DNA from: an uncultured Pseudomonadota bacterium | Lineage (GTDB): Bacteria; Pseudomonadota; Alphaproteobacteria; Rs-D84 | Assembly: GCA_902793435.1 (NCBI GenBank) | Contig: CADBDF010000002.1 | Span: forward strand, 71,623 to 135,622 | DNA: 64,000 nt | Direction of reading: 5' to 3' | Shown here: one piece after another, positions 34,478 through 52,340 of the stretch | Numbering within the stretch: the first letter of the stretch is position 1 | Layout of the letters: each line of letters starts with the position of its first letter | The notes under the pieces: model-generated | Told to the model about the DNA's origin: nothing | Seen by the model: only the letters and a program-made list of their open reading frames with translations | Database searches by the model: none | Made by a program: the position numbers and the translations under genes

Positions 34478-34478
34478 T

Positions 34479-34679: not shown

Positions 34680-34759
34680 AAGAGTTATTTTTGCACAAGA
34701 ATTTGGTTTGTCAAGTGTAAAATGTTTTGATTTTACGGAAAAAATGCTATGATAATGTT

Positions 34760-35392
34760 ATGAAAACGAACCCAAATTTTGATTTTGAATATGAAACTGG
34801 TGGTATTGTTGCCGGTGTTGATGAGGCAGGTCGGGGACCATTATGTGGTCCGGTGGTTGCGGGCGCGGTGATTTTTGTGGATAAAAATATTGAAATTCCG
34901 GTGGTTATACGTGATTCTAAACAAATGACTGCAGCTCAGCGTGATTTGGCATACGATTGGATAACGAATAATACAATTTGGGCGGTGGGTATGTGTAGCC
35001 CGGCGGAAATAGACGAATTAAATATATTGTGGGCATCAATGCGGGCGATGGAAAGGGCAGTGGATGCCTTGGCGTTGCAACCAAATTTTTGCCTGATTGA
35101 TGGAAATAGGGTTCCAAAAAACCTGAACGGGCGTGCGGTGGTCAAAGGTGACGCAAAATCATTATCTATTGCGGCGGCGTCCATTATCGCAAAGGTGACG
35201 CGTGACCGTTTAATGCATGATTTGGCGCAAAAATATCCCGAATACGGATGGGAAAAAAACGCCGGTTATCCAACGCCGGAACACTTGCGTGCGATAGAAA
35301 AATATGGTATAAATGAACATTATAGAAAGTCTTTTGGACCGGTAAAAAAGATTTTGGAAAGGGGTAATGATAATGAAACTTCGTGTGGTTGA
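34760..35392 (+). CDS. rnhB: Ribonuclease HII
   Basis: VAGVDEAGRGPLCGPVVAGAV and DSKQMT...ASIIAKVTRD are RNase HII motifs. The start is taken at the first ATG because the listed start is a TTG. Confidence 0.85.
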   Translation: MKTNPNFDFEYETGGIVAGVDEAGRGPLCGPVVAGAVIFVDKNIEIPVVIRDSKQMTAAQRDLAYDWITNNTIWAVGMCSPAEIDELNILWASMRAMERAVDALALQPNFCLIDGNRVPKNLNGRAVVKGDAKSLSIAAASIIAKVTRDRLMHDLAQKYPEYGWEKNAGYPTPEHLRAIEKYGINEHYRKSFGPVKKILERGNDNETSCG

Positions 35393-36539: not shown

Positions 36540-36585
36540 ACTATATAAAAAAAGTGCCGGAAAATTTGCGAACTGCTTTTTTTTG

Positions 36586-36594
36586 TGCTATAAT
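36586..36594 (+). promoter_or_regulatory. Extended -10 promoter element (TGcTATAAT)
   Basis: The sequence tgtgctataat lies upstream of clpP. Confidence 0.4.
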
Positions 36595-36631
36595 TAAGTG
36601 AATTTAACGATTTTTACAAAAGGGTTATATT

Positions 36632-37213
36632 ATGTCTTTGATACCTATGGTTATAGAAGAATCGCCACGTGGTGAGCGGTCTTTTGATATTTATTCACGT
36701 TTATTGCGTGACAGAATTATTATGGTGACGGGCGAAATAGAAACAAATATGGCAAATATTATTGTTGCCCAGTTGTTGTTGTTGGAATCCGAAAATCCAA
36801 ATGCTGATATTTCGATGTATATTAATTCACCTGGGGGTGATGTGTCTGCAGGAGAAGCTATTTTGGATACTATGCAATATATCAAGGCGCCAGTTTCGAC
36901 AATTGGTATGGGGTTGGTTGCATCTATGGCGTCTGTATTATTGGCGGCAGGTGAAAAAGGTAAACGTTTTTCTTTGCCGAATACCAGTATTATGATTCAT
37001 CAGCCAATGGCCGGTACCCAAGGACAAGTAACGGATATGGAAATTCATGTTGCAAAATTTAAAAAGACAAAAGAAAAGTTGATTAAACAAATGGCTGAAT
37101 TTACAGGACGTAAAGAAAAGGAACTATTTACTGCGATGGAACGTGATAATTGGATGGATCCAAATGCTGCCAAAGATTTCGGTTTGATTGACGGTGTGTT
37201 GGTTCGTAAATAA
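36632..37213 (+). CDS. clpP: ATP-dependent Clp protease proteolytic subunit
   Basis: [22 protein letters not shown], the active-site region [11 protein letters not shown] and IMIHQP are ClpP motifs. Confidence 0.95.
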
Positions 37214-37237
37214 TTTTTTAATGGGGATTAAAGAGAT

Positions 37238-38506
37238 ATGAGCGACAAAAATATGAATTCATCAGAAGATAAAAAGAATAACCAGTTTTGCAGTTTCTGT
37301 GGCAAAGCGGTGTACGAGGTTAAAAAGTTAGTCAGTGGTCGTAACGTTTGTATTTGTGATGAATGTATCGCGTTGTGCAATGATATTATGGCGGACGATT
37401 TACGCAATGATGTTGTGAAAAATGGTGCAACAAAATTGCCGACCCCACATCAAATATGTGACTTTTTAAATGAATATATTATCGGTCAGACGGAAGCGAA
37501 ACGTACATTGTCGGTCGCTGTGTATAATCATTATAAACGGCATACTGTTGCAACGAATACAGATGTTGAGATTCAAAAATCTAATGTGTTGTTGATTGGT
37601 TCGACTGGGACTGGTAAGACTTTATTTGCGCAAACTTTGGCGCGCATATTGGATGTTCCTTTTGCGATTGCTGATGCAACGACGCTTACCGAGGCTGGGT
37701 ATGTCGGTGATGATGTTGAAAGTGTTTTGACGCGTTTGTTGCAAAATGCGAATTTTGATGTTGAACGTGCAAGTCGCGGAATTATCTATATCGATGAAAT
37801 TGATAAAATTGCACGTAAATCTGAAAATCCATCATTAACACGTGATGTTTCCGGCGAAGGTGTGCAACAGGCTTTGTTGAAATTAATAGAAGGTACCGTT
37901 GCAAATGTCCCAGCGGGTGGTGCAGGGCGCAAACACCCGGGCGAGGCCACTGTTCAATTGGATACATCAAAAATATTATTCATCTGTGGTGGTGCATTTG
38001 ATGGATTAAATAAAATTATAGGTGCGCGTAAAAGTGTTCGTGCCGGTATCGGTTTTGGCGCAGAGGTGTCGTCCAAACAAGAACGCGAGGGTAAAAATAA
38101 TTTGGCTGATGTTGAACCCCAAGATTTGGTAAAGTTTGGAATTATTCCTGAATTGGTGGGACGTTTGCCGATTATCACAACTTTGCAAGAGTTAGATGAA
38201 TCTGCATTGGTAAAGATTTTGACAGAACCGAAAAATGCGATAGTAAAACAATATGCGGCTATGTTGGATTTGGACGGTGTGAAACTGACTGTGACACCGG
38301 ACGGATTGCGTGAAATTGCGAAATTGGCGGTGAAACGCAAAACAGGTGCGCGTGGATTGCGTAGCATTTTGGAAAAAATATTGTTGGAACCAATGTTCGA
38401 GGCACCCGACAGAAAAGATTTGACTGAAATAGTAATTGATAAAGATGTGGTGTTGGATAAAAAGAAACCAGTTGAAATTTTTGCGGAAACAAAGAAAGCC
38501 GCATAA
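37238..38506 (+). CDS. clpX: ATP-dependent Clp protease ATP-binding subunit ClpX
   Basis: The zinc-binding region is CSFCGK...CICDECI, Walker A is GSTGTGKT, and IYIDEIDK and GARGLRS are present. Confidence 0.95.
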
Positions 38507-38514
38507 AAAATGAA

Positions 38515-38550
38515 TAAAAAAACACCCCGATTTTTTCGGGGTGTCATTTA
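38515..38550. terminator. Bidirectional intrinsic terminator between clpX and the convergent tail-fibre-like gene
   Basis: The stem is acaccccga/tcggggtgt, with an A-run upstream. Confidence 0.6.
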
Positions 38551-38614
38551 TTTGGAACCAAGCCTTTTAAAGTTTAATGGGAGTTGAATTCGGGGCCAAT
38601 TCCAAATAAAACTG

Positions 38615-39985
38615 TCAATCTGCACTTTCTATAATCTCGTACCAGTGCGGAACAATAACACCGTTTTCTTCGGTTTCGACCAGCAGGCACTTTTTGCCGG
38701 CGGGGCAGTTTTCGTCTGGACGGGTTTGTTTGGTTGCCTGCAAATCTGCAATCGCCTTGGTTTGATTTATTGTGTTTGTGACGACATCACGTATGGTCGC
38801 AATCGTGCTGTTTAAATCATTTACGACCGGACTAAAACGCGCACTGTTATACGCAGTCGTCGCAATTTTGATTGCGTTGGTGGCGATTGTTGTGACAACA
38901 CTGGCCCCCGATGACAACAGGGTTGTAATGGTCATACCAGTCACACCGCCAGTACGATTATTAACCGGTGCGGTGGTCATGGTTTGTCCCGCGACAGATT
39001 CCGTTGTTGCTGTTGCTAACGGATATACGATTATAACAGGTGTTCCCGCGTTGTATTGTGCAGCAAGCCAAGCCTTAAATGCTGTTACATCATTATTTGC
39101 CGTATCATACCTAATTTGTAGCCAAGCCGACTCAGTCGCACGATAAATAGAGTTATCTGTTGTTAAATTGCCTGTAAATGCAAAATGCGAACACGCCATA
39201 ACGTTGCTTTCAGACACAGGAACCAAGCCTTGAACCCTAAATCTATTATTGTTTAATCCCCAAATCTCCGTTCCATCAAGCACCTTGACCCCGACATTGC
39301 GGGTGATTGCGCCAGTGTTGATATTTTGTGTGTCACGATAATCGCCCACACCCAACAAAGTCGCCACCGTCGCCGTATGATTTGCACTGTCCGCAATCGT
39401 TTCAACCTCGCCATCGGTGTAGATTTGTCCGTATGGCATATACGGTGTTGCAGTTGAGCCGCGTTCTAATTGTAAAATATCGTCACATTTATAAACGTCA
39501 TTTACACCAACCGTAAGATATAAATACTTTGCTGATGTTGCTGTCGTAATTGTTATATCTACACCCTCCGTTCCACCACCATTTTGTGCGGTTTGTAGCA
39601 CTTTGTCACTACTATCTACAACAACCCAATACGGTGTGTTGGCTTTTATTTTTCCAAAAGTATAAGTCGTATTTGGCTGAACTTCAATACGATAAACATT
39701 ATATCTGTTATTTGGTGTGGTAGAAAACCCTGTTTGACCAACGGTTGCAGAACTTATATAATTCCTACTTTGGTATGGTGTTTGGTCTTTATCAAACAAA
39801 TTCTTACTTACTTTCAACACCCCATTATTGCTCACAATGTCCATTGGTGTATTTGGGGTTGGTGTGCCGTTTTGTGTGACCAAACCCGCCACAGTCACCG
39901 ATGATATTGGACCCGAATTTGTTTCTGCTGACCAACCAGAAATCGTTACCAACAGTCCCAGCAACCCAAACAACAGTTTTTTCAT
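38615..39985 (-). CDS. Exported tail-fibre-like mosaic protein A (paralog of 49383..51428)
   Basis: The signal peptide is MKKLLFGLLGLLVTISGWSA. LQLERGSTATPYMPYGQIYTDGE resembles phage fibre or receptor-binding module junctions. Three blocks are shared with gene B. Confidence 0.75.
   Translation of the reverse strand: MKKLLFGLLGLLVTISGWSAETNSGPISSVTVAGLVTQNGTPTPNTPMDIVSNNGVLKVSKNLFDKDQTPYQSRNYISSATVGQTGFSTTPNNRYNVYRIEVQPNTTYTFGKIKANTPYWVVVDSSDKVLQTAQNGGGTEGVDITITTATSAKYLYLTVGVNDVYKCDDILQLERGSTATPYMPYGQIYTDGEVETIADSANHTATVATLLGVGDYRDTQNINTGAITRNVGVKVLDGTEIWGLNNNRFRVQGLVPVSESNVMACSHFAFTGNLTTDNSIYRATESAWLQIRYDTANNDVTAFKAWLAAQYNAGTPVIIVYPLATATTESVAGQTMTTAPVNNRTGGVTGMTITTLLSSGASVVTTIATNAIKIATTAYNSARFSPVVNDLNSTIATIRDVVTNTINQTKAIADLQATKQTRPDENCPAGKKCLLVETEENGVIVPHWYEIIESAD
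38630..39004 (-). repeat. Inverted homology block 3 (C-terminal module), partner 51036-51410
   Basis: The nucleotide sequence is largely identical in reverse complement and encodes TESVAGQTMTTAPV.NRTGGVTGMTITTLLSSGASVVTTIA...CPAGKKCLLVETEENGVIVPHW. Confidence 0.8.
39266..39472 (-). repeat. Inverted homology block 2, partner 50538-50744
   Basis: Only scattered substitutions occur over ~200 nt. It encodes GSTATPY.PYGQIYTDGEVETIADSANHTA.VATLLG.GDYRDTQNINTGAITRNVGVKVLDGTE. Confidence 0.85.
39791..39922 (-). repeat. Inverted homology block 1, partner 50091-50222
   Basis: It encodes TNSG.ISSVTVAGLV.QNGTPTPNTP......NNGV.KVSKNLFD. Confidence 0.75.
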
Positions 39986-40159
39986 CTTTCTCCCCTTTGT
40001 GTTTTTTGCATCGCAAAAATAAAAACACCGCTAACGGAGTTGAGCGGTCGGGGTGCTAGAAAAATCAAGAATGGTAATGATCCCGCGCATATCGCTAAGC
40101 GCAGACACCCCGCCAAAAAACGCAGGGTTAAAATCATTGGGGAAATATAAAATCGCGCC

Positions 40160-40202
40160 AAAAAAAATTTTGCACCGTCGATTTTATATAGTGACGGTGC
40201 AA
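40160..40202 (-). terminator. Intrinsic terminator of the 40440..43028 gene
   Basis: The 10-bp stem ttgcaccgtc/gacggtgcaa is followed by an 8-nt T-run on the minus strand. Confidence 0.65.
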
Positions 40203-40439
40203 AACACAGAATAGTTATCGCGTGGTCACAAAGACCAAATCGACCTTTTTTAGGTTTCTTTGGGATAACGATACAGGTCATGCACCGACCATTCTTAAGG
40301 CTTTTCTAGGGCCCCGAATACAACCCCCGTTGTATTCTGTTTTTTAGTATATAAAATTTGTTTTTGTATTCGCAACAAAAAATTATGTTGATTGTTTTTT
40401 TGTGTTCGCAAACCGCCGGTTTGCATGTGGAATATGTTG

Positions 40440-43028
40440 TTAGCTGCCCGAGGAGTTATCTTCCCAGTGTGCAGACAATGTTGTATTTGATTTAATGTCC
40501 CATTTGTTTGCAGATGTACCGTCTGCGTTGTAATATTTTTTGTCATTGGCATCATAAAATCCTGCAAATGTAGAATTTGTTTTTGTGGGAAGTGTGCTTA
40601 GTGTAGGCATGTTCATACCGTATGATGCAATGACAGGTGTTGGACCATTTTGCCCACCATTAAGGTTAAATGTTACGGTATATGTGCAAAATGCATACAA
40701 TGTTGTATTTGATGTAATGTCCCATGCACGCGTTGCGTTTCCATTTGCATCAAAATATTGTGTGCCGCCACCGTTCGGTTCTGTGTAATATCCTTTAAAA
40801 CTGCTGCTTGTATCTGTTGGTGGGGTAATGGTGATTTTTGTGCCTTGTTTTATTTCAGCAGTATAATTGTTGTTGCTGTCGTTTTGTAAATCAAATGTTA
40901 TTGTATATGTTGCAGGTGTTATTATTGGTGATTTGCAATAACCCCAACTTTTATTTGCACCTGTTTCAGTATAGAATTGTTCCAATAATTCAACCGATGT
41001 ATCTGATGTGCTGTTATATGCGTTTGATACCCATATTCCACCCAGACGTTCGCATTCGCGCGATAATTCTGTGCCCATTGCAATACGCATTTTGTCCATA
41101 ACTATATTGATGTCTTGTAATACAGCGGTTGGAACATTGTTTGCCAATGTTTCATATTCAGATGGACGAATACAAACCTGCATCGCATAATTTACAAAAC
41201 GTTGATATAAACTGTTTGCATAATCAACACCACAGGTTTGTGTGTCTATTGATGATGTGTCGTTGCATTTCGCAATCGTGGCATATCGTTGGTCCCCAGG
41301 TGAATATACGCGACATGTGTATGGATATGTATGTAATGTATCCGTTGATTGAACCGCGCATAAATTATTTCCAAAATCTTGCAACAGATTTTGACATTCG
41401 GCGACAATTCTTTGACTGACAATGTCGTGCATTGCATTTACCAATGCCGTCAATCCATTTGGTCCGCCACCGTAAAGGTTGCTGCATGTGTCTAATTTTT
41501 CACGACATAAATCTTCGACGGTTTCCATGTTTAAACCCAATAATGTTTTGTCGCCTATATTACTGAAATCTTTTAATTGATTTGTTTGTGTGTCATAACA
41601 ATCATTTACAACACCCAAACATTCTGTGCGAACAGTACGAATTTTTTCTTGCTGTTTTTGATGGATTTCTATAATCGCCTGGCGCATGAATTCGTCCCAA
41701 ATGTCGCCAGATAAATCACGACATTTATCCAAAGATTTTTCTGCAAAAATTTTTTTTGTGTTTAATGTATTTACAATCATGTGGTTTGTTTGATTGTTTA
41801 ATATATTCCCAGATAATGATATTTGATTCGCCAGGTTATAAAAGTTTGGACTGTATATCGGTTCCCCAGAATCAATGTTTAAATATAATCCTGTGATGTC
41901 CAAACAATGCACAAAGTCAGGTCCGCATGCCGTATTCGCCGTCAGGTCTTGACGGACAGATGCGATACAATCGTTAATTGATAATGAATTGTGTGCATCG
42001 TAATTTTCCAGGCGTGCAACGCCCATTTCGCGACCTGTTTCACGAATTGTGCTGTTTGTTGCATTTTTTTGTTTATCTAAATTTGTCGCCAGATTAGAAC
42101 AATCGTTTTCTATATACATTCCGTATGCAGATATTATCATATTTAAACTGGATTCAGGACATTTTTCAGCCACCATGTTTGAACATTGTGCATTTACCGC
42201 GTTATACAATGTTTCGCCTGTCAGGTTTGCAATGTTTGCGCCCGATGCCAAATCTGTGGTCGTCCATATTGATTTTATGTCGCCACCGGCATCCAATGTC
42301 CCGGCGGTTGATAATGATTTATTTTTTGCCTGGGTTAAAACATCACTGATTGTATTTAATGTTTGTGCGGATTGTGAATTGTCGTGTGATGCCGCCACCG
42401 TTTGTTCGCCAACCGTTGCAGATGTCATTGCGGCAACTTCGCCCGCTGATTTTTTTATTATGTCCATATTTAAATCGTGAAATGCGGTTAATGAATCTGT
42501 GCTTTGCGATAGGGCAGATTGTTTTTGTTTGATTTCGTTTAATCTGGATGAACAAATACAACGGCGGTATGTGTCGTCCATTGATGCACAAAACTGGTCC
42601 ATACAGGTAAAGTATGCGTCGCGGCACGTTGTGTAATCTGCGCCAAATGCGGCCTCGTTATTTGTTGCAGAATTTGTCGGTAAAATTGATGCCGCGCGAC
42701 CAACAATACTTTTGTTTTTTATTGGGGTGTATAATAATCCAGAACGCGATGATATGACTGTGCGTTGTGGTGTGCGTGTTGCTATGTTTTTTGTGCTGCG
42801 TGCATTTGTTGTTTGTGGGCGTGATATGGATATTGCAGAACGTTGTGCGTTGCGCGGTTGTGATGATGTGTCACGTGTGCGCACAGATACAGTCGAACGT
42901 GAAACAGATTGGGTTTTTGTGTTTGTTGATGTGCGTGTTGGTGACGATGCAGACCGTTCAGCCGCATTGGCAACACCAATGCACAAACAGCATGATAAAA
43001 CAAGATATAAAAAACCCTTCCTATTCAT
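40440..43028 (-). CDS. Giant secreted cysteine-rich protein (family with the N-terminal C-x2-AY-x2-CMD-x-FC motif) with two C-terminal Listeria-Bacteroides (Flg_new) repeats
   Basis: The signal peptide is MNRKGFLYLVLSCCLCIGVANA, followed by a Ser/Thr/Arg-rich spacer and CRDAYFTCMDQFCASMDDTYRRCICS. The C-terminus has YTITFDLQND...FKGYYTEPNGGGTQYFDANG...TLYAF and YTVTFNLNGG...FAGFYDANDKKYYNADG...TLSAHW. Confidence 0.8.
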   Translation of the reverse strand: MNRKGFLYLVLSCCLCIGVANAAERSASSPTRTSTNTKTQSVSRSTVSVRTRDTSSQPRNAQRSAISISRPQTTNARSTKNIATRTPQRTVISSRSGLLYTPIKNKSIVGRAASILPTNSATNNEAAFGADYTTCRDAYFTCMDQFCASMDDTYRRCICSSRLNEIKQKQSALSQSTDSLTAFHDLNMDIIKKSAGEVAAMTSATVGEQTVAASHDNSQSAQTLNTISDVLTQAKNKSLSTAGTLDAGGDIKSIWTTTDLASGANIANLTGETLYNAVNAQCSNMVAEKCPESSLNMIISAYGMYIENDCSNLATNLDKQKNATNSTIRETGREMGVARLENYDAHNSLSINDCIASVRQDLTANTACGPDFVHCLDITGLYLNIDSGEPIYSPNFYNLANQISLSGNILNNQTNHMIVNTLNTKKIFAEKSLDKCRDLSGDIWDEFMRQAIIEIHQKQQEKIRTVRTECLGVVNDCYDTQTNQLKDFSNIGDKTLLGLNMETVEDLCREKLDTCSNLYGGGPNGLTALVNAMHDIVSQRIVAECQNLLQDFGNNLCAVQSTDTLHTYPYTCRVYSPGDQRYATIAKCNDTSSIDTQTCGVDYANSLYQRFVNYAMQVCIRPSEYETLANNVPTAVLQDINIVMDKMRIAMGTELSRECERLGGIWVSNAYNSTSDTSVELLEQFYTETGANKSWGYCKSPIITPATYTITFDLQNDSNNNYTAEIKQGTKITITPPTDTSSSFKGYYTEPNGGGTQYFDANGNATRAWDITSNTTLYAFCTYTVTFNLNGGQNGPTPVIASYGMNMPTLSTLPTKTNSTFAGFYDANDKKYYNADGTSANKWDIKSNTTLSAHWEDNSSGS

Positions 43029-43069
43029 ATTTAACAATAATGATACCAAAAAATGCGTATAAAAGGAAA

Positions 43070-43093
43070 TAAAAAATGCACCGTATGGTGCAT
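43070..43093 (-). terminator. Intrinsic terminator of infA
   Basis: The sequence atgcacc-gtat-ggtgcat has a T-run on the minus strand. Confidence 0.65.
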
Positions 43094-43115
43094 TGAATAA
43101 CAGAATAAATTTGCG

Positions 43116-43364
43116 TTATGCGTTTGGTGTGTCAGGTGTCGCACTGTTGCGTTCAATAAATGTGATGCGACCTTTGTCTAAATCATATGGGGTCATTTCA
43201 ACGCGGACCTTTTTTCCAACATTGACCCAAATGCGATTTTTACGCATTTTCCCGCAAACAGTTGCAATGATTTCATGGCCGTTGTCCAACATAACACGAA
43301 ACATTGTGTTCGGTAATTTGTCGGTGACTGTGCCAGTGAAAACGATAACGTCGTCTTTTGCCAT
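43116..43364 (-). CDS. infA: Translation initiation factor IF-1
   Basis: [69 protein letters not shown] matches IF-1. Confidence 0.9.
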
Positions 43365-43500
43365 AAAATAAATCCTTTTGTTTTGTTGCGGTAATAATAA
43401 AGCCAGAACACTAAAATATCAAGATTTTTTTTACTATCGCTTGAAACGATATGTTTTTTTTGATAAAATTATACTTGATTATAGTTATGCGGAGAGAGAT

Positions 43501-45726
43501 ATGAAAATAAAAAATCTTGCACTGGTTTTATGTTTTTTGCCGATTGCGGCGTGGGCTGCAACCGGTGAAAATAGCGCGCGTGTCGGTATGACGCGTTCGA
43601 ATTCTGCATCGGGGGTGCGTATGTCGTCGGTTAGTAATATCGTGACCAAAAAAGTTGCGGCTGCGCCGGTCGTGGAACAACGTAGCGGGGCAAGTGTTGC
43701 ATCAAATTCATCAGCCACAAATGATACAGATGTTGTCGAAGAAGACGAAGTTGTTGTGGCAACTGAAACAAAAAAAGCAACTGTGTCGGCGGAAAATTGT
43801 CGTGATGCGTATAGAGAATGTATGGACGATTTTTGTTTGCTGGACGAAACCGAGGGTTCGCGTTGTGCGTGCAGTGATAATATTGAACGGTCTAAAAGTT
43901 TAATTCAACAAATTCAAAAAATTCAAGGTGAGGCAGATGATTTATATACAACCGGTGTTGAACGCGAAAAATTAGGTGCCAAGGCAAAGTTGGTTTTTGG
44001 TTCGTCTGATGCGGCAAAAAAAAGTTCTTTGAAATCAGGATTGGATTTTTCAGCCTGGTTGAATAGTGGGACAGATGACGACACAGCAGATGTTGGCGAA
44101 GATATGGATATTGGTCAAAATCTGTATGCAATGGCGGCAGATGCGTGCAAAGCTGAATTGGCGGCGTGTGGTTCCAAGGCCAAGGCCGAAGAAACTTTAT
44201 ACAGTCGTATGATTGTTAATGATTGCAAGGCATTTGGAACATATTTAAATGACCAAAAACGCGAAGCAGAAATGAATAAAAAGACGGCCGAGGCGGCGGT
44301 TCGTTCTGCGCGTTTGGAAATGTTAAATACTACAAATAAATATAACCGCGGTGAATGTTTGTTGGTGTTTCGTTCTTGTATCGCTGACAAGGGTGGTTGT
44401 GGTGTGAATTTTGAAAATTGTTTGGACGAAGGTTTGCTGACCCGTCGTTCGCACGCATGCGAAGATGTGTTGGATCAATGTATGGCGGTGCGTGATGATG
44501 TTTTAAAAGATTGGCAAGAAGAATCTGTTGCGGTGTTAAAAGATGCGGCAAAGTATGCTGATAAAAATGAACGCGCAACATGTTTGGCAAAAATCCAAAA
44601 CTGTTTGGAAGAAGGTTGTTCAACATCTACGAATTCTGCGTGTTTGACAGATGTTAATGTTGCCGCAGGAATTTGCCCAATTATCACAGAATGCAATGAC
44701 AAAATACCAGGACTGCAAACAGTTATAAATGATAAATTGGGATATTTGCAAACAAAATTCTGTGAAAACGATTTAGATGCTTGTTTGAAAGATAAATGTG
44801 GAACAGATTTTACAAAACCGGAATGTGTTGGTAGAAATCCAACAGAAATTGCGAAATTGTGTCCTCAATCAATGTTTCCATCTTGCAAAGGCGCAACACA
44901 ATATGATGTGTTGGTGTCGTCTGCGATGTTGCATATGGATTATCAGTTGTTGACAGGTTGTATCAATCAATTTGCGGAAAAATTAACCGCTGTTTGCGGA
45001 ACAGATATGGCATGTATCCCGGTGTCTAAACTGTTGCCGGTGGTTGATAAATGGGTTGATTTGAATTCGGCTGATGGTAAAAAAATATTGGCAAATGCGG
45101 AAAGTGCGGCCAATACGGCGGTTGATGAATTCTTTGCAGATTTTAGTAAAGATTTGACTTTGTCTGCATGCCAAGATGTTTATGGAAAAAATCCAAAGAA
45201 AGTTAAAGATAAAACAGGTATGCAAGACAGTATTAATATGACTGCTAAAATGATTGCATATACCAATGCACGCGCACGCGCGGATCGTGAATTGGCATCG
45301 GTTATGAACGAATTGAAAATCAAAGAAGAAACAGATAGAAATCGTAAATATTGTATGAAAAAGTTCCAACAAGAACAAGAACCTGACAAGGAAGGTAGTT
45401 ATAGTTATATCCGCAGTGCAACATACGAACCAAGTTTGCAAAGTTGTCATGTGTGTCGTATGCAACGCGTTTGTGAAAAAGGTGGTGAAAAGAAATCTAC
45501 ATCTGCATTGAAATCTGCGGCGGGTGGTTTGGCGGCGGGTGCGTCGGCTGGAACAATGGTCAGTCCTGGTTGGGGAACGGCGATTGGTGCGCTTGTTGGT
45601 GGTATTGGTGCCGGTGTGATGGGTGCAATGTCTGGGGGCGAAGAAGAATTCTGCCAAGAATTAGAATCGTGCGAAGATATTAATATCGCCGGTGTGACCC
45701 AAGAAGAATTAGACGAATTACAATAA
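43501..45726 (+). CDS. Giant secreted cysteine-rich protein (same family) with a C-terminal glycine-zipper helix
   Basis: The RBS ggagagag precedes ATG 43501. The signal peptide is MKIKNLALVLCFLPIAAWA. CRDAYRECMDDFCLLDETEGSRCACSD and AAGGLAAGASAGTMVSPGWGTAIGALVGGIGAGVMGAMSGG are present. Confidence 0.8.
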   Translation: MKIKNLALVLCFLPIAAWAATGENSARVGMTRSNSASGVRMSSVSNIVTKKVAAAPVVEQRSGASVASNSSATNDTDVVEEDEVVVATETKKATVSAENCRDAYRECMDDFCLLDETEGSRCACSDNIERSKSLIQQIQKIQGEADDLYTTGVEREKLGAKAKLVFGSSDAAKKSSLKSGLDFSAWLNSGTDDDTADVGEDMDIGQNLYAMAADACKAELAACGSKAKAEETLYSRMIVNDCKAFGTYLNDQKREAEMNKKTAEAAVRSARLEMLNTTNKYNRGECLLVFRSCIADKGGCGVNFENCLDEGLLTRRSHACEDVLDQCMAVRDDVLKDWQEESVAVLKDAAKYADKNERATCLAKIQNCLEEGCSTSTNSACLTDVNVAAGICPIITECNDKIPGLQTVINDKLGYLQTKFCENDLDACLKDKCGTDFTKPECVGRNPTEIAKLCPQSMFPSCKGATQYDVLVSSAMLHMDYQLLTGCINQFAEKLTAVCGTDMACIPVSKLLPVVDKWVDLNSADGKKILANAESAANTAVDEFFADFSKDLTLSACQDVYGKNPKKVKDKTGMQDSINMTAKMIAYTNARARADRELASVMNELKIKEETDRNRKYCMKKFQQEQEPDKEGSYSYIRSATYEPSLQSCHVCRMQRVCEKGGEKKSTSALKSAAGGLAAGASAGTMVSPGWGTAIGALVGGIGAGVMGAMSGGEEEFCQELESCEDINIAGVTQEELDELQ

Positions 45727-45747
45727 TTTTCATAGATGGAGAGAGAT

Positions 45748-48219
45748 ATGAAAACAAAAATATTTTTGCGTTTTGGATTGTTAATTGCGATATGTACTGT
45801 GGCGATGCCTGGGTATTGTGCAACACAATCGTCGGGAAAACAATCTGCAATTCAACAAGGAACCAAAGTGCGCGCAAAAACAACCGCTGCGGGTTTATAT
45901 AACCAAGAATGTTATGATGCGTATTATGGGTGTATGGATCAATTCTGTATTTTGGATAACGAAGATGGTGGGTCGTGCGCATGCAGTGATAAAAATGCTG
46001 GATACGAGGCGCGTTTAGAAAAAATCAAAGATACTTTGACCGAAGCCGACAGATTGCAAACCGAAGAAGTTGAACGTGTTCAGGCGGGTGCAAATGCAGA
46101 TATTATTTTCAATGGCACACGCACATACGATAAAAAAACTGGCGATGTTGCAAAAAACACAAAATCTGCGGCGGAAAAACGTAAATCTTTGTTGGCAATG
46201 TGGGACGATACATTGGACGACGATGAAGATTTCGATATGGAATCGATTGCTGATAAAACAGGTGATGCTTTGTTTGCGGCGGCTGACGAATTATGTCGTT
46301 CACAGATTGATATGGATACATGTTCCAAAGATGTTAAATTATTAAAACAAATGTATTCGCGTCAAATCGTGTCTGATTGTAAAGGATTTGAAAACAGTAT
46401 TGTAAAAAAAGAGGCCGAGGCAAAAACGGCTATGAATTCTGCAAATGCGGCGGTCCGTAGCGCATTAAAAGAATCCTTGGATTCGGCGAATAAATACGAT
46501 CGTGGCGAATGTATGGTTGAATATAAAAAATGTATGCAAGGTCCAGATGCATGTGGCAAAGATTGGGAAAATTGTGTATTTACGGTCGCAGGGGAAAATA
46601 TGCAAAATAATGCGGCGGTCAGCACAGCCAAAACAACAGTAAAAAAAACAGTCACGTATGATATAACCGATTCTACGATGGAAATTTTGGAATCCAAACG
46701 TTATATTTGTGAACGCGTGTTGGACCAATGTGTCGCGGTGCGTGATAATGTTTGGAACGATTTCTTGAGAGAGGCCGCACCAACAATTAAATTGGCAGAA
46801 AGCAAAATAGAATCTAAAAAACGTCAATCTTGCCTGACTGATATTTCTAATTGTATTCAAAAGGCATGTAAAGATGATATTGTTGGCAAAGGCAAGGATA
46901 CAATGGACGCATGTTTGGCGCGTCCTGATATGGCACGCAGTTTCTGCAAGGTTGAAATTGACCCATGCGAACGTATGGAACCCCAGATTTGGGCTTATGT
47001 CAAAGATAAATTGGCGGCTATGCGTGTTGATGCATGTACCGAAGAGGTTAAAGATTGCTTTACCGATGAAAATCGTTGCGGCGAAAATTTCCAAAATTGT
47101 ATAGGTATGGATTACGCATATATTCATGATATTTGCCCAATCGATAAATTGGTCGTTTGCAAACAGGCAAATCCAAAATTCTCGATGAGTGATTTGGATT
47201 CTATGTTGATGGGATTGTATTTGAATATTGATAATGCAGCGCTGGAAACATGTCAAAACTTGGTGACCGAAAAAATGACCGAGGTTTGTGGTTCCACCAC
47301 AGATTGCAATAAATTTGCGGCGGACGAGGTTATTGGAACTGGCTCGTTGCGTTCGCAAAAAGATGGAGATGTTTATCGTGTGACTGGTATGATTTCATTC
47401 GGTTCGATTAAAATGGGTGACGCATCTGGTAATACAAAAGATGGTGAAGATAAATTGGGACCGGGTGAAATTGGTGTTGCAGATTATATCGCGCGTGTGA
47501 ATGAAAAGTTTTCAAACGAACCTGATGCAGATGCGATTATCCCAACAATTGAAGAAGAATTGAATAATATTGCGGGGACAATCAATCGCACAATTGAAAT
47601 GATTGAACAAGACCCCAAGATTCAATATTGCATCACTGGGCGTAATCTGGATCAAATTACGGGTAAAAAAGGCGAAAAAACAACAGCGCGTTTCCCGAAT
47701 TTATTGAATCAGGTTAAAATGCAAATTGCTATTTCGGCTTTACGTCAAGCCCAAGATAATTATAACAAAAAATTTACCGCGGCTGTGGCTGAGGCAACCA
47801 AAGACGCGTCTTTGGATGTAGCGCAATATATGTGTCAAAAGGTTGCACAACCAAAATTGCCGTCGATATTTAAAAAACTAGCCAAATCAGGTGAAGGTGT
47901 TTCTACGCCGGGGGTTGATGCTGAATTAACACCACCATACGCAATCAGTTATGATGTTAGCACAGGTTTGAAAAATGTTGATTTGACCAAGAATGGTGCG
48001 GCGTCTAACAGTTATGGCTTTACAAACAGCAACGGCAGTGGGGGAAGTACCACAACCGAAGTTACCGCTACGTTCAGTCGTGACACCAGAAATTGTCATA
48101 TTTGTCGTACGGTTTCAACACAAAGTTGTTCGACCAAAGGTGGAAATTGGTTCAGAAAAGCGAATACTTCTTGTTCGACATCTGCCAAGGATCCTGTTTG
48201 CGAAGATGTTAAAATGTAG
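45748..48219 (+). CDS. Giant secreted cysteine-rich protein (same family)
   Basis: The identical RBS context ggagagagatATG is used. The signal peptide is MKTKIFLRFGLLIAICTVAMPGYCA. CYDAYYGCMDQFCILDNEDGGSCACSD is present. It is collinear with the 43501 protein (NKYNRGECLLVF vs NKYDRGECMVEY; CEDVLDQCMAVRDDV vs CERVLDQCVAVRDNV). Confidence 0.8.
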   Translation: MKTKIFLRFGLLIAICTVAMPGYCATQSSGKQSAIQQGTKVRAKTTAAGLYNQECYDAYYGCMDQFCILDNEDGGSCACSDKNAGYEARLEKIKDTLTEADRLQTEEVERVQAGANADIIFNGTRTYDKKTGDVAKNTKSAAEKRKSLLAMWDDTLDDDEDFDMESIADKTGDALFAAADELCRSQIDMDTCSKDVKLLKQMYSRQIVSDCKGFENSIVKKEAEAKTAMNSANAAVRSALKESLDSANKYDRGECMVEYKKCMQGPDACGKDWENCVFTVAGENMQNNAAVSTAKTTVKKTVTYDITDSTMEILESKRYICERVLDQCVAVRDNVWNDFLREAAPTIKLAESKIESKKRQSCLTDISNCIQKACKDDIVGKGKDTMDACLARPDMARSFCKVEIDPCERMEPQIWAYVKDKLAAMRVDACTEEVKDCFTDENRCGENFQNCIGMDYAYIHDICPIDKLVVCKQANPKFSMSDLDSMLMGLYLNIDNAALETCQNLVTEKMTEVCGSTTDCNKFAADEVIGTGSLRSQKDGDVYRVTGMISFGSIKMGDASGNTKDGEDKLGPGEIGVADYIARVNEKFSNEPDADAIIPTIEEELNNIAGTINRTIEMIEQDPKIQYCITGRNLDQITGKKGEKTTARFPNLLNQVKMQIAISALRQAQDNYNKKFTAAVAEATKDASLDVAQYMCQKVAQPKLPSIFKKLAKSGEGVSTPGVDAELTPPYAISYDVSTGLKNVDLTKNGAASNSYGFTNSNGSGGSTTTEVTATFSRDTRNCHICRTVSTQSCSTKGGNWFRKANTSCSTSAKDPVCEDVKM

Positions 48220-48231
48220 GGGGTATTCGAT

Positions 48232-49140
48232 ATGGATAATATGAACGAAGTTGTCACCGCAAATATTCAAAATGATTTGCAACATGTGGCAGAAGTACAA
48301 CAAACTTTGACTGAACCCAAGACCGCGGAACAATGGCATGATTTAATCAATGGATTATTGGGTGGTGCGGTGGATTTTTGTCTGCGTTTGATTGCGGCGG
48401 TTGCAATTTTGTGGGTTGGTATGTGGATTGCAAAACGTGTAACCCGTTCTGTTAAATTTGCAATGGAACGGCGTGAATTAGAACCGTCGTTGATTTCATT
48501 TACATCATCATTTGTGAATATATTGGCGCGTATTTTTGTTATTATCATAGTCCTGACAACGGTTGGTGTGCAAATGACATCAATTGTGGCGGTGTTGGGT
48601 GCCGGTGCATTGGCGGTCGGTATGGCATTGTCTGGGACTTTCCAGAATTTTGCCGGTGGTATAATTATTTTGTTTTTAAAACCGTTCAAAGTCGGTGATG
48701 TGATTCAAACGGCATCTGGTCGAACTGGCACAGTTAAAAAAATTATGATTTTTACAACTGAATTACATACATTTGATAACCAGGCCGTATTTATTCCAAA
48801 TGGGCCGTTGGCAAATGGTGAAATTATAAATTTGTCAGACAGAAAAAATCGTCGCGCAGAAATCAAAATCGGTATTTCATATGGCGACAGTGTTGATGCG
48901 GCACGCAAAGTGATATTGGATACATTGGCGGCGGATTCACGCATATTAAAAACCCCAGAACCGTCTGTGTTTGTCAGTGACCTGGGTGACAGTGCGGTTG
49001 TTTTGACGGTATGGTATTGGACAAAGTATGCAGATAATTTTGCGACCATGGGTGATATACGCGAAGCATTGTATAAGGCATTGCCGAAAAAGAAGGTTAA
49101 TTTTCCATTTCCGCAAGTTGATGTCCATGTTAAAAAATAA
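48232..49140 (+). CDS. Mechanosensitive ion channel (MscS family)
   Basis: TM helices are followed by GAGALAVGMALSGTFQNFAGGIIILFLKPFKVGDVI, which is typical of the MscS pore helix and beta domain. Confidence 0.85.
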   Translation: MDNMNEVVTANIQNDLQHVAEVQQTLTEPKTAEQWHDLINGLLGGAVDFCLRLIAAVAILWVGMWIAKRVTRSVKFAMERRELEPSLISFTSSFVNILARIFVIIIVLTTVGVQMTSIVAVLGAGALAVGMALSGTFQNFAGGIIILFLKPFKVGDVIQTASGRTGTVKKIMIFTTELHTFDNQAVFIPNGPLANGEIINLSDRKNRRAEIKIGISYGDSVDAARKVILDTLAADSRILKTPEPSVFVSDLGDSAVVLTVWYWTKYADNFATMGDIREALYKALPKKKVNFPFPQVDVHVKK

Positions 49141-49144
49141 AAGA

Positions 49145-49172
49145 AACCCCTACAAATGTGGGGATTTTTTTT
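49145..49172 (+). terminator. Intrinsic terminator
   Basis: A cccc/gggg hairpin is followed by a T-run. Confidence 0.55.
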
Positions 49173-49182
49173 AATACAACCG

Positions 49183-49203
49183 GTCTAAAAAAAACCTAGG
49201 TTT
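49183..49203. promoter_or_regulatory. Operator-like site, copy 1 (contains the perfect palindrome AAACCTAGGTTT)
   Basis: The sequence gtctaaaaaaaacctaggttt is identical to 49292-49312. Confidence 0.4.
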
Positions 49204-49291
49204 AAAAGCAACAACTTTTTTCAAAAAAATGAAAATTTACTTTTATCGTAAAATCAATAATTTATCAAAAATCGCAATTCGCCGTTTGGGT

Positions 49292-49312
49292 GTCTAAAAA
49301 AAACCTAGGTTT
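49292..49312. promoter_or_regulatory. Operator-like site, copy 2, abutting the -10 element of gene B
   Basis: This identical 21-mer lies 109 bp downstream of copy 1 and ends 4 nt before tgtataat. Confidence 0.4.
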
Positions 49313-49314
49313 TT

Positions 49315-49322
49315 TGTATAAT
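49315..49322 (+). promoter_or_regulatory. -10 promoter element (TGTATAAT)
   Basis: The sequence tgtataat lies ~60 nt upstream of ATG 49383. Confidence 0.4.
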
Positions 49323-49382
49323 CACAATATAGTAAAAAACCGCGGATTTCCGCCAGTTTATAAAATCGAGAGAGTTGCGAAA

Positions 49383-51428
49383 ATGTCTGCAAAATGTGCA
49401 TTTTTTGGTGTTTTACAAAAAATAGTGGTGATTTGCTGTGCCATATTTTTTGGATTTGCCAACGCATTTGCCGCAAATTTACCCGCCGGATATACGGAAT
49501 TGGAATATATCGAATCCACCGGCACACAGTACATTGATACGGGATATAAACCAAAAACAGGTGATAAAATCAGAATTGTTTATCAGTATAACTCGTTAAC
49601 TGGTGGTGGTAGTGGGTATGATGCTGTAGCGATATTTGGTTGTACGGATGAGGCTTCGGCTACGGATGCTGGCAATGGTGTTGCGCGAGTAATTCAATGG
49701 GAAAACGCTATCAACCGTATAGCGTGGGGGAGCGGAACAAATTCCGTAGTAGGCAATCTTACATACAATAGCGCAACAGGTGTATGGTATGACTTGGTAT
49801 GCGATAATGGCGTATTCACTATTAACGACACACAACTTGGCACGACAAGTGCAAATTCATTTTCTGCTAATTTTTCAATGTATTTGTTTGCAAGAAATAC
49901 AGGTGGAACAGCAGGACTTATAACAAAAGGTAAAATACAAATTGCGCAAATATGGGACAATGGCACTCTTGTTCGAAATATGGTCCCTGCGAAAAATTCG
50001 TCTGGTGTGGTTGGTATGTATGATACGGTTAACGATGTATTTTATCAAAATGCCGGCACCGGGACATTTACCGCGGGGCCGGTGGTGGTGACAAATTCTG
50101 GGGCGATATCGTCGGTGACTGTGGCGGGTTTGGTTGCACAAAACGGCACCCCAACACCAAACACACCTGTTGCAATCAACACAAACAATGGGGTGGTGAA
50201 GGTAAGTAAGAATTTGTTTGATGTTAATAATGTGGAAATACAAGCGAACACTTCTATTGCCACAGACGGTTCATTAGTAACTAATGCTTTAACAAAAGTT
50301 TGTATGACATACTTACCAGTTAAACCAAATACTACATATACAATAAGTGGTGATGTTTTAGGGGGCGATTCAGGTGCAGGCAATGCGGTATATTTTCGAC
50401 TGGTAGAATATACCTCATCTAAGCAATTCATTACCCGCGGTGCGGGAGTTCTCGGTTCATCTTATACATTCACAACTGGTGCAGACACATATTTTGTAAG
50501 ATTTCATTGTTTAACCAGAGCAGACCTAAACACATATCAACTCGAACAAGGTTCAACTGCAACACCTTATCATCCTTACGGTCAAATCTACACCGATGGC
50601 GAGGTTGAAACGATTGCGGACAGTGCGAATCATACGGCGAATGTGGCGACTTTGTTGGGTATTGGCGATTACCGTGACACACAAAATATCAACACTGGCG
50701 CAATCACCCGCAATGTTGGGGTAAAGGTGCTGGATGGAACGGAGAGTTTTGTTACAAATGTTATAACGGGCTGTTATGCTTTAAAGCCTTACATTGGTGC
50801 AGGGAATTTTGGTGATAAAACTGTGTATAGTTCTCATCTAAAAAGCACAGCAGCGATACCTGCTTTTGGTTCAAGGGATGGTTATGCGTTTATCGTAAAT
50901 GCTGGTGATGACTATACATTAGCTTTTGGAGGAACGGGCACATGGTCTTCTCTTTCTGCATTCAAACAATTCCTTGCCGAACAATATGCCGCAGGCACAC
51001 CTGTAATCGTTGTCTATCCACTTAAAACACCGACAACGGAATCTGTTGCGGGACAGACCATGACCACCGCCCCTGTCGATAATCGCACAGGCGGTGTGAC
51101 CGGTATGACCATTACAACCCTGTTGTCGTCGGGCGCCAGTGTTGTCACAACAATCGCCGCCAATGCAATCAAAATTGCCACAACTGCGTATAACACTGCG
51201 CGGTTTAGTCCGGTTGTAAATGATTTAAATACCACGATTGCGACCATACGCGATATCGTGACGAATACGATAAATCAAACCGCCGCAATCGCAAGTTTGC
51301 AAGCGGACAAGCAGACCCGCCCGGACGAACAATGCCCCGCCGGCAAAAAATGTTTATTGGTTGAAACCGAAGAAAACGGTGTTATTGTTCCGCATTGGTT
51401 CCCAATAATAGAAGTCCCCGAAGATTAA
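49383..51428 (+). CDS. Exported tail-fibre-like mosaic protein B (paralog of 38615..39985) with an extra N-terminal domain
   Basis: The RBS gagagag precedes ATG 49383, and the listed GTG 49290 lies inside the operator. The signal peptide ends FANAFA. The N-terminal domain is LPAGYTELEYIESTGTQYIDTG...GMYDTVNDVFYQNAGTGTFTAGP, followed by blocks 1-3 shared with gene A. Confidence 0.75.
   Translation: MSAKCAFFGVLQKIVVICCAIFFGFANAFAANLPAGYTELEYIESTGTQYIDTGYKPKTGDKIRIVYQYNSLTGGGSGYDAVAIFGCTDEASATDAGNGVARVIQWENAINRIAWGSGTNSVVGNLTYNSATGVWYDLVCDNGVFTINDTQLGTTSANSFSANFSMYLFARNTGGTAGLITKGKIQIAQIWDNGTLVRNMVPAKNSSGVVGMYDTVNDVFYQNAGTGTFTAGPVVVTNSGAISSVTVAGLVAQNGTPTPNTPVAINTNNGVVKVSKNLFDVNNVEIQANTSIATDGSLVTNALTKVCMTYLPVKPNTTYTISGDVLGGDSGAGNAVYFRLVEYTSSKQFITRGAGVLGSSYTFTTGADTYFVRFHCLTRADLNTYQLEQGSTATPYHPYGQIYTDGEVETIADSANHTANVATLLGIGDYRDTQNINTGAITRNVGVKVLDGTESFVTNVITGCYALKPYIGAGNFGDKTVYSSHLKSTAAIPAFGSRDGYAFIVNAGDDYTLAFGGTGTWSSLSAFKQFLAEQYAAGTPVIVVYPLKTPTTESVAGQTMTTAPVDNRTGGVTGMTITTLLSSGASVVTTIAANAIKIATTAYNTARFSPVVNDLNTTIATIRDIVTNTINQTAAIASLQADKQTRPDEQCPAGKKCLLVETEENGVIVPHWFPIIEVPED
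50091..50222 (+). repeat. Inverted homology block 1, partner 39791-39922
   Basis: See the partner entry. Confidence 0.75.
50538..50744 (+). repeat. Inverted homology block 2, partner 39266-39472
   Basis: See the partner entry. Confidence 0.85.
51036..51410 (+). repeat. Inverted homology block 3, partner 38630-39004
   Basis: See the partner entry. Confidence 0.8.
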
Positions 51429-51579
51429 AAAATGCCCGATTGGGTGTTTTTTTTTATTTTCAAACTGCAATAGATGATACATTTTTGTTGCCAATCAATC
51501 CTATATGTTTTGTTGGGGTGGGGCGGTATAATTGTGTTGTGTAAATGATATAAACTTTTAACCAATGGAGAGAAAACAC

Positions 51580-52057: not shown

Positions 52058-52340
52058 GCTATAAAATTGTCTTGATATTCTTTTAATTTCTTTGATAAAA
52101 TGGATTTGAACTTAATGGGAATTGGGTTCGGGGCTTTGATAGGCTTTTGGTATGTTCGGCATATAACGCGACATCGTGTTCGGGTTTGCGGTGTCGCGTG
52201 TATGTCGTTATTTTTTCCAATAAATTACCCCATGATTTTTTGCAAGATTGGGGGGCCGTTAATGTATAAAATACTGATTCGTTCGGGAAGATTAACGGAG
52301 TCAAAGCATACTGATTTATCAACCCCCCGACCACATATTT

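Follow-up and report, generated by a model that had tools for sequence, protein, structure and literature searches.

The DNA analysed here is a stretch of 64,000 nucleotides (nt), hereafter the window, taken from contig CADBDF010000002.1 (positions 71,623 to 135,622) of an uncultured alphaproteobacterium of the lineage Rs-D84. It carries two divergent genes, A and B, separated by ~9.4 kb, which have three conserved blocks in common and variable modules between these blocks. An earlier note on this DNA had described this layout together with the block order and coordinates, and an inverted-repeat search recovers the same three pairs; the map of open reading frames (ORFs) agrees that the two genes face away from each other, and the segment that they bracket does hold three cysteine (Cys)-rich genes, infA and mscS, as had been stated. 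All three blocks are collinear and in frame in proteins A and B, and this inverted collinear layout is far above chance expectation. The modules between the blocks are unrelated, as the note had said, with just ~20-23% amino acid (aa) identity, but the blocks themselves, which had been called largely identical in nucleotides, turn out to be 82%, 88-90% and 82% identical. The same blocks recur in hundreds of proteins that were overlooked in the note, and A and B are therefore discussed here as members of a family of apparently exported, mosaic proteins.

In the A/B comparison the blocks have 0.08-0.11 nonsynonymous substitutions per site (dN) and 0.33-0.72 synonymous substitutions per site (dS) by the Nei-Gojobori method, that is, a dN/dS of ~0.13-0.24. 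The longest exact-match runs are 23 nt in block 1, 44 and again 44 nt in block 2 and 32 nt in block 3. The repeat search delimited the block 2 pair as 39262-39472 and 50538-50748 (211 nt, 90%), and block 3 contains the predicted coiled coil and knob which define the family (A residues 373-456). The ORF of gene B can be extended upstream to a GTG at 49290, its longest possible form; the ATG at 49383 is favoured as the start because of the homologue P0001 and a ribosome-binding site. A protein identical to the gene A product, P0006, is found on three contigs. The coordinates of these and other features are collected in the table.

Features of the A/B locus in window coordinates, unless a contig is named
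Feature	Position	Strand	Details
Gene A	38615-39985	minus	456 aa; intact ORF with translation
Gene B	49383-51428	plus	681 aa; intact ORF with translation
Block 1	A arm 39791-39922; B arm 50091-50222	inverted	132 nt; 82% nt, 84% aa; dS 0.61
Block 2	A arm 39262-39481; B arm 50529-50748	inverted	~211-220 nt; 88-90% nt, 90% aa; dS 0.33
Block 3	A arm 38627-39082; B arm 50958-51413	inverted	456 nt; 82% nt, 87% aa; dS 0.72
Third paralogue P0017	L003 10001-12256 (window-equivalent ~66819-69074)	plus	751 aa
Three-hairpin RNA motif	40260-40340	minus	A-type leader, ~275 nt upstream of gene A start
Three-hairpin RNA motif, further copies	52105-52216; L003 9679-9759	plus (both)	
B-type leader	49184-49312	plus	two direct TCTAAAAAAAACCTAGGTTT copies, 49184-49203 and 49293-49312
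Bidirectional terminator hairpin	38521-38545		between clpX and gene A 3' end
mscS terminator	49148-49163	plus	
Gene B terminator	51427-51452	plus	
Bracketed segment	40440-49140		big869, infA, big782, big827, mscS
big869	40440-43049	minus	
infA	43116-43364	minus	
big782	43501-45726	plus	
big827	45736-48219	plus	
mscS	48232-49140	plus	

Both proteins begin with a Sec-type signal peptide, as had been noted before and as inspection of the sequences confirms (MKKLLFGLLGLLVTISGWSA before E in protein A, MSAKCAFFGVLQKIVVICCAIFFGFANAFA before A in protein B). In protein A, the signal peptide leads into the block 1 linker, which is followed by a variable beta-sandwich resembling a carbohydrate-binding module (CBM) and ending in LERGSTATPYMPYG, by block 2, by a variable insert and by block 3, the last of these comprising the end of a mid-domain, a low-confidence stretch, a ~40-aa helix and a small C-terminal hairpin knob. 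Protein B follows the plan of A, except that its signal peptide is followed by an extra N-terminal domain, a LamG/pentraxin-like lectin (residues 31-236, motif LPAGYTELEYIESTGTQYIDTG). The AlphaFold models, with a predicted local distance difference test (pLDDT) score of 62 for A and 77 for B, give one order of elements: a signal-peptide helix, a beta-sandwich at residues 31-236 (B only), a beta-sandwich ending in QLExGSTATPYxPY, a mixed mid domain, a low-confidence stretch, the ~40-residue helix and two C-terminal hairpins. What had been taken for a second variable module is in these models an insert within the mid domain, flanked by conserved edges. From this order, the blocks can therefore be regarded as scaffold and linkers, and the variable parts as whole modules or inserts. 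The models suggest that the ~40-aa helix is a coiled coil, the name used for it below, and coiled coil and knob together are presumably a trimerisation or anchoring element. Signal peptides and module make-up thus support the claim that A and B are mosaic and appear exported.

Comparison of folds points in the same direction for the single domains. The N-terminal domain of B has domain-level matches to laminin-G, pentraxin and neurexin folds in the PDB and the jelly-rolls to CBM- or lectin-like folds, and a PDB fold search with the model of A gave weak CBM-like matches alone (E>=2e-3); such folds are only suggestive of glycan binding. The model of B has 61 matches at E<=1e-3 in BFVD, mostly uncharacterised proteins of uncultured tailed phages, with some that are annotated as tail fibre, distal tail or receptor-binding proteins. 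Sequence searches gave little: neither Pfam nor PHROG yielded a usable match when the two proteins were scanned in full and module by module, even at E<=1, neither Peptidase_S74 nor any other Pfam family matched A or B, a PDB sequence search found no match, and a tblastn search of GenBank phages with B found none either. The family is undescribed, there being no Pfam or PHROG match to A or B and no literature found.

Relatives are nevertheless abundant. Database searches yielded more than 1236 matches for B and 477 for A at E<=1e-30, none of these relatives having a Pfam domain; their sources are nearly all metagenomes of rumen or gut, and those with a name belong to metagenome-assembled genomes (MAGs) of an "Alphaproteobacteria bacterium". 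The only universal element of the family is the coiled coil with its knob, which may be internal or C-terminal, occurs once per protein and is represented by 313 cluster representatives among 1.84 billion proteins. A scan for the coiled-coil block in one genome per species found it only in MAGs labelled proteobacterium, Alphaproteobacteria or Candidatus Enterousia. Around this element the modules vary: many members are without the LamG-like domain of B, and in some the coiled coil has a lectin domain on either side. In RUG14746, the closest genome, the sampled regions contain at least 21 family copies on both strands, from which the family is estimated to make up ~3% of a genome of roughly 1 Mb, and inverted neighbouring family pairs bracketing 4-11 kb occur several times in it. 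Because of this high copy number, the inverted A/B pair is unremarkable. Moreover, a third paralogue, P0017, also overlooked in the note, sits on the same contig 2.8 kb past the end of the window; its nucleotide identity to A is 94-96% in the signal peptide and block 1 and 89-90% in blocks 2 and 3, and it carries a Cys-rich C-terminal extension beyond the coiled coil.

The variable modules lead to phages. Homologues without a signal peptide end in ...EITQASxxxLELEx.Y and sit in phage genomes: P0038 belongs to a myovirus-like tail module beside Phage_spike, Sheath_initiator, Mtd_N and lysozyme genes, and P0127 to a phage contig with an Hc3 connector (E=9e-56), a fibre-like protein and a lysozyme. 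The variable insert of A is 82% identical to P0127 and its jelly-roll 65% identical to P0124, while the jelly-roll of B (var1) is 74.5% identical to the phage-type P0019 and the lectin domain of B ~55% identical to P0015 and P0038; Firmicutes matches to the QYAAGTPV module are just ~30-40% identical. Receptor-binding modules of phage fibres are therefore present in A and B in fold as well as in sequence (55-82% aa; BFVD), and the description of both as tail-fibre-like is upheld by the homologues in phage tail modules and by the BFVD matches of B. Like phage tail fibres and receptor-binding proteins, the family uses these module types with the junction motifs NLFD...QLExGSTATPYxPY, IYTDGxVET...VLDGTE and QYAAGTPVxxVYPL, and modules are exchanged at conserved linkers. 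At the nucleotide level, the fibre gene of phage contig L076 has 56-95-nt stretches in common with blocks 1 and 3 at 87-95% identity.

However, A and B differ from phage tail fibres in that they lie among housekeeping genes and outside any virion tail gene module, that the Sec signal peptide replaces the baseplate-attachment N-terminus, and that they end in the coiled coil and knob. Among 220 proteins, 93 have the coil motif, 45 the phage-type C-terminal motif and none both; coiled coil and knob were seen solely in signal-peptide proteins of Alphaproteobacteria/Rs-D84-like MAGs, and all 45 phage-type proteins lack them. As to the hosts of such phages, the tetranucleotide usage of phage L096 is Rs-D84-like (r=0.79-0.86 vs 0.28-0.69 with Firmicutes loci), but this signal is weak overall, being clear for L096 and ambiguous for L076 and L039. 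L039 was considered as host evidence and found uninformative, as it is binned with a proteobacterial MAG yet is itself a phage contig (CAMVAB010000009.1) with a T7-like head-tail connector, a holin and a 1036-aa fibre sharing family modules. MAG binning can thus mix such phages with putative hosts.

Each gene has control elements of its own. Cassette A consists of a ~400-nt conserved leader, the gene and a terminator common to clpX, and cassette B of a conserved leader, the gene and its own terminator; an own promoter for B is likely because a terminator follows mscS. An undescribed three-hairpin RNA motif, itself preceded by a promoter-like TTGCAA-17-TATAcT, lies upstream of family genes of the A type, gene A and the third paralogue among them. 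In ~1.1 Mb of related loci, a covariance model recovers 29-32 copies of this motif, with 97% of cells paired as compared with 28-50% in slid controls and with compensatory changes in 14 of 21 pairs, and Rfam 15 has no family matching it. In the B-type leader, the second TCTAAAAAAAACCTAGGTTT copy lies in a perfect 18-bp palindrome, AAAAAACCTAGGTTTTTT, which abuts GTATAAT. This element is common to B-type paralogues, and several sites abut GTATAAT beside B-type gene starts in different genomes. Two copies of its core, AAACCTAGGTTT, precede B, and a count over 1.38 Mb of fetched sequence, in which a few loci are duplicate or overlapping, gives 29, whereas 0.03-0.18 per window would be expected by chance; within the window the core is confined to the region upstream of B, and none is found near gene A. 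Judged from its sequence setting, the palindrome is likely an operator of a family-wide regulator. The dedicated leaders and promoters of the family are conserved across genera. An ORF called orf99 (39982-40281) was considered as a partner gene of A and rejected, as it is uncalled in the source annotation (L001) and odd in composition; its conservation is explained by the leader RNA and promoter, as the ORF lies over part of this leader. In addition, the RNA motif copy at 52105-52216, with a terminator after it, stands as an orphan in the spacer of BOF and OmpA; this spacer is 396 bp in the window vs 47 bp in the relative L081.

Comparison with related loci shows how the cassettes come and go. 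Seven more distant contigs (L080, L081, L082, L083, L084, L085 and L091), whose clpX is 88-92% identical at the aa level, carry a family gene at neither position: the 3' end of big869 comes 32-620 bp after clpX, and in the four contigs that reach far enough (L081, L082, L084 and L091) the BOF promoter comes 100-580 bp after mscS. A and B therefore look like genes gained at either end of a divergent operon pair older than themselves, repeated loss being less parsimonious. In RUG14746, the left flank is 88% identical in nucleotides to the window, the central 9.4 kb 95.5% and the right flank 94%, and the homology is interrupted from one cassette edge to the other, at 38530-40042 and at 49407-51438. 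The gene at the A position in RUG14746 encodes a signal peptide, one jelly-roll, the coiled coil and a C-terminal lectin domain, and that at the B position a signal peptide, a lectin domain, a jelly-roll and the coiled coil, so that both are different family members with different module sets. Contig L077 is 95% identical in nucleotides to the RUG14746 allele through signal peptide, jelly-roll and coiled coil, the homology ending right after the PHWYEI knob, and its incoming C-terminal lectin domain matches that of paralogue P0150. Consequently, whole-gene replacement and module swap at a conserved block edge are both documented.

Two further observations concern these replacements. The left flank (29842-38529) is more diverged than the centre (40043-49406), with a dS of 0.45 for clpX vs about 0.1, and this looks like an imported recombination tract of at least 8.7 kb which arrived with the gene A allele. 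On L095, a 1.6-kb contig from another sample, positions 1-74 match the leader and start of the B type (window 49361-49434) at 89% identity and lie ~120 nt upstream of a complete family gene, P0011, whose signal peptide differs; the fragment may be the scar of an earlier cassette replacement. L095 was also considered as an allele at the A position and is unplaceable, as the 3' sequence in common belongs to the inside of the cassette and the contig goes no further.

The explanation that best accounts for these data, with a probability of about 0.65 in our judgement, is that A and B are variable surface adhesins of a Rs-D84/Enterousia-like bacterium which diversify by gene and module swap and not by inversion between A and B. 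The two genes would be self-contained cassettes (leader/promoter, gene and terminator) of a large, lineage-specific family of Sec-exported modular proteins in gut Alphaproteobacteria with reduced genomes, the members of which would string phage-fibre-type lectin- or CBM-like beta-sandwich modules onto the conserved scaffold segments seen as the three blocks, and the blocks would be kept alike mainly through purifying selection on the protein. They would have been gained at the ends of the older divergent operon pair, and whole genes or single modules would be replaced by homologous recombination with alleles, paralogues or phage tail-fibre genes, reciprocal A-B inversion having no part in it. 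The products would be surface-exposed, probably trimeric, glycan-binding adhesins by which a partner-dependent bacterium could attach to other cells with a variable repertoire under diversifying selection. Members of Enterousia and the order Rs-D84 have genomes below 1 Mb with most biosynthetic pathways missing, and they have been proposed to be obligate symbionts or parasites taking metabolites from other cells (PMC12306168).

Several points weigh against this explanation. The adhesin function is inferred throughout; the signal peptides were assigned by eye; and the AlphaFold models are monomers of moderate confidence, so that the trimer is presumptive. A Sec-exported protein of a diderm cell would still need a route to the outer surface. 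If the phages that share modules with the family infect Rs-D84, the modules may bind the bacterium's own surface, and the source of replacement alleles could be other strains, paralogues or phage. Furthermore, A-B inversion is geometrically possible, and assemblies leave room for rare events.

The closest functional analogue of an adhesin family of this kind would be the MAT (mosaic adhesive trimer) fibres of Bdellovibrio bacteriovorus, a superfamily of 21 signal-peptide-bearing, phage-tail-fibre-like surface proteins (Caulton et al. 2024, PMC10769870). The binding domains of MATs are mosaic and swappable, glycan binding has been shown for one member, and all of them have a conserved ~130-aa N-terminal domain after the signal peptide and a variable C-terminal tip (PMC10769870). 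Both families are composed of multi-copy, fibre-like mosaic proteins with an N-terminal signal peptide (seen in A and B by inspection), and MATs belong to a bacterium dependent on other bacteria, much as Rs-D84 members are proposed to depend on other cells. Unlike MATs, the A/B family has its variable lectin modules N-terminal to the coiled coil, and often C-terminal to it too; the conserved beta-rich N-terminal domain of MATs is absent, A running from the signal peptide straight into block 1. MATs form a trimeric intertwined beta-helix/prism fibre, with an S74 chaperone-protease in a subset; A and B have no Peptidase_S74 match, and their monomer models suggest a coiled coil. The two are set side by side here by architecture and not by sequence homology.

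A wider proposal is put forward only tentatively and is less probable than its opposite. Partner-dependent gut bacteria like Rs-D84 and Enterousia might devote an estimated 3% of a ~1-Mb genome to at least 20 exported receptor-binding proteins drawn from the module pool of the tail fibres of co-occurring phages, with modules and genes flowing between phage and chromosome and with alleles turning over between strains at a dS of ~0.1. These proteins might serve as an attachment repertoire for partner or host cells or as secreted masks of the cell's own phage receptors and might be co-regulated by the leader RNA and the palindromic operator.

Masking or decoy of phage receptors and kin adhesion stay alive as alternatives to attachment to partner cells. 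An anti-phage role, in which the exported proteins bind the cell's own receptors or act as decoys, block phage adsorption and turn over in an arms race, could draw on the modules that are 55-82% identical to those of genuine phage fibres, on the blocks shared with a phage fibre gene at the nucleotide level, on the Rs-D84-like tetranucleotide usage of L096 and on the very fast allele turnover at an orthologue dS of ~0.1. We consider it rather unlikely, however. The Pfam-identified gene neighbours are housekeeping genes, the phage hosts are deduced from composition only, with L076 ambiguous, and members whose coiled coil has a lectin domain on either side are more in keeping with a bridging adhesin. 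To our knowledge, secreted fibre-like receptor masks have no precedent.

The earlier note had itself suggested inversion-driven shuffling of A and B together with ongoing gene conversion. In its RecA-dependent form, recombination between A and B blocks would periodically invert the 9.4-kb segment, swap the modules downstream and yield chimeric fibres in a clonal population. The blocks do have the right geometry, being inverted and collinear and keeping the reading frame, the exact runs of 44, 44 and 32 nt are longer than typical minimal pairing lengths, RecO is encoded within the window, and block-edge module exchange does happen in the family, as in L077. However, homologous exchange is strongly disfavoured at 82-90% identity, and the related loci show a single orientation of the segment. 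The syntenic locus of RUG14746 (L017/L032) is collinear with the window, and in a metagenome scan with big782, which gave 18 loci, every junction-spanning contig reads clpX(+)-big869(-)-infA(-)-big782(+)-big827(+)-mscS(+)-BOF(+), as in the window; the orientation is uniform in RUG14746, L077 and the seven more distant contigs, with or without A/B-type genes. Two database-wide homology searches found no A/B chimera among 5.8 billion proteins, and the variable modules of A and B are never together in one protein among the 220 fetched homologues. The best non-self match to A has at most 61% identity, and the best ones to B at most 58% when they span no more than 67% of the query, or 42% when they span all of it. 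What separates close strains is the replacement of whole genes and not reciprocal exchange, and with at least 21 scattered copies inverted neighbour pairs are common by chance.

The age of the blocks speaks against gene conversion as well. Between the window and RUG14746, the orthologues infA, big782, mscS and BOF have a dS of 0.10-0.16 (clpX, 0.45), and the block dS of 0.33-0.72 is thus older than the split of these strains. Because block dS exceeds orthologue dS, A and B blocks have not been homogenised since long before that split. Block identity in nucleotides is 82-90% between A and B, 83-96% between A or B and the third paralogue and 84-91% between A or B and paralogues in other genomes; homogenisation specific to A and B was rejected, as their identity is no higher than with paralogues elsewhere. 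From block dS and these paralogue identities, no ongoing gene conversion and no special relationship between A and B are indicated. The coiled coil of P0011 is 98.8% identical in amino acids to that of A, although the block 3 alignment holding it is ~89% identical in nucleotides, and because of this contrast and the low dN/dS, block conservation is ascribed to purifying selection on the protein. The note had named such selection, together with divergence at synonymous sites, as weakening its idea, and this is largely what is found. Of the proposed module exchange at the blocks, the swap at a block edge stands, as in L077, but exchange between A and B does not. Inversion by RecA between A and B is accordingly quite improbable.

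In Campylobacter fetus, sap surface-protein variation arises by RecA-dependent inversion, opposed paralogous genes bracketing several kilobases with other genes. The A/B locus is similar in its inverted paralogues with conserved regions in common. However, sap has a single promoter on an invertible element, promoterless homologues and an observed inversion, whereas A and B each have their own leader and terminator and no inversion is seen; the conserved regions are not near-identical as in sap-type systems but 82-90% identical in nucleotides with a longest exact run of 44 nt, and no chimeric products of both partners are found.

A site-specific invertase, shufflon- or Gin/Hin-like, has also to be considered, with a serine recombinase acting at hix-like palindromes to rearrange promoters and 5' ends among paralogues. 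The architecture of the palindrome upstream of B (A-tract-ACC TA GGT-T-tract) is superficially like hix/gix half-sites; its AAACCTAGGTTT core is repeated upstream of B and recurs in related loci, several sites being beside B-type starts; and the related contig L006 has, at a distance of 9 kb from its family member P0003, a 200-aa Resolvase+HTH_7 gene of invertase size (421-1023, minus strand) next to a YadA_anchor protein. On the other hand, tblastn with this resolvase finds no homologue in the window or any other fetched locus, Pfam finds no recombinase (Resolvase or Phage_integrase) in the scanned window ORFs of at least 150 aa, and the precomputed Pfam annotations of L001 and L003 contain none. 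The motif copies in the window are direct and lie upstream of B only, the strain homology break at 49406 is inside the signal-peptide codons ~95 nt beyond the palindrome, and the abutting -10-like GTATAAT fits an operator better. The palindrome was therefore rejected as a crossover site in the main explanation, the strain breakpoints being elsewhere and the motif being absent near A, and we give an invertase very little credence.

Inversion-driven shuffling of the kind suggested in the note is known from the invertible tail-fibre segments Mu G/Gin, P1 C/Cin, e14 Pin and Min and from the pilV shufflon of R64, in which DNA inversion yields alternative fibre-like receptor-binding C-termini. These systems have an adjacent dedicated recombinase and short specific crossover sites, whereas at the A/B segment no recombinase was found by Pfam or by the L006 resolvase search, and the inverted repeats are not short sites at a constant/variable junction but long, diverged coding blocks of 132-456 nt. 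They also have one expressed constant 5' part and promoterless 3' cassettes, whereas A and B are complete ORFs, each with its start, signal peptide, leader with promoter, and terminator; and of the two orientations expected of a shufflon only one is seen in RUG14746, L077 and the seven more distant contigs. The suggestion of inversion-driven shuffling thus finds no support on three counts, namely no recombinase domain in the scanned ORFs, a single orientation and no A/B chimera.

Least probable of all, and already disfavoured, is that A and B are decaying prophage tail-fibre remnants without cellular function: they resemble phage fibres in sequence and structure and match no Pfam family, but their ORFs are intact, block dN/dS is well under 1, signal peptides stand in place of phage N-terminal attachment domains, the phage C-terminus is replaced by the coiled coil and knob of signal-peptide proteins, the leaders and promoters are dedicated and conserved across genera, and the neighbours are housekeeping genes with no phage genes found in the window.

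The genes around A and B are housekeeping genes by Pfam (clpX, infA, mscS, BOF and OmpA), and no phage genes were found among the Pfam-scanned ORFs of the window. Within the bracketed segment, big869, big782 and big827 encode secreted Cys-rich paralogues of 869, 741/782 and 827 aa with 28-38 Cys (3.2-5.0%) and a mutual identity of 24-30%, and the trio is kept at the locus with infA and mscS in most related contigs. Weaker homologues of the trio lie near family genes at L004/5, L014 and L015. The C-terminus of big869 consists of Listeria-Bacteroides (Flg_new) repeats, and in this region, at the 3' end of the gene, there is a 34-nt direct repeat with 222-nt spacing (window 40470-40725); from the RUG14746 homology gap at 40504-40691 it follows that the copy number of the big869 repeat unit differs between strains. 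Elsewhere in the window, an enolase is the only one with a Pfam match among ten long ORFs scanned within the first 17.6 kb (35-17609), and a 1138-aa protein (8438-11854) has a sub-threshold ankyrin-repeat match alone. Such Pfam-poor gene content is typical for a poorly characterised, host-associated, reduced genome. The window also encodes a choloylglycine hydrolase (26443-27516) and a DUF1015 protein.

As described above, the reading of this locus as a chromosomal shufflon, tempting yet unsupported, is now removed. In its place stands a family that would parallel the Bdellovibrio MAT fibres with a different architecture and would thus represent a variant of the idea of a phage-fibre-derived adhesin repertoire, and that illustrates how, in nature, modules pass between the fibres of phages and the surface proteins of cells. 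The leader RNA and the palindromic promoter element are handles for locating the regulon and its regulator. For the uncultured Rs-D84/Enterousia bacteria, which are proposed to live off other cells, the family supplies concrete candidate attachment or phage-interaction factors.

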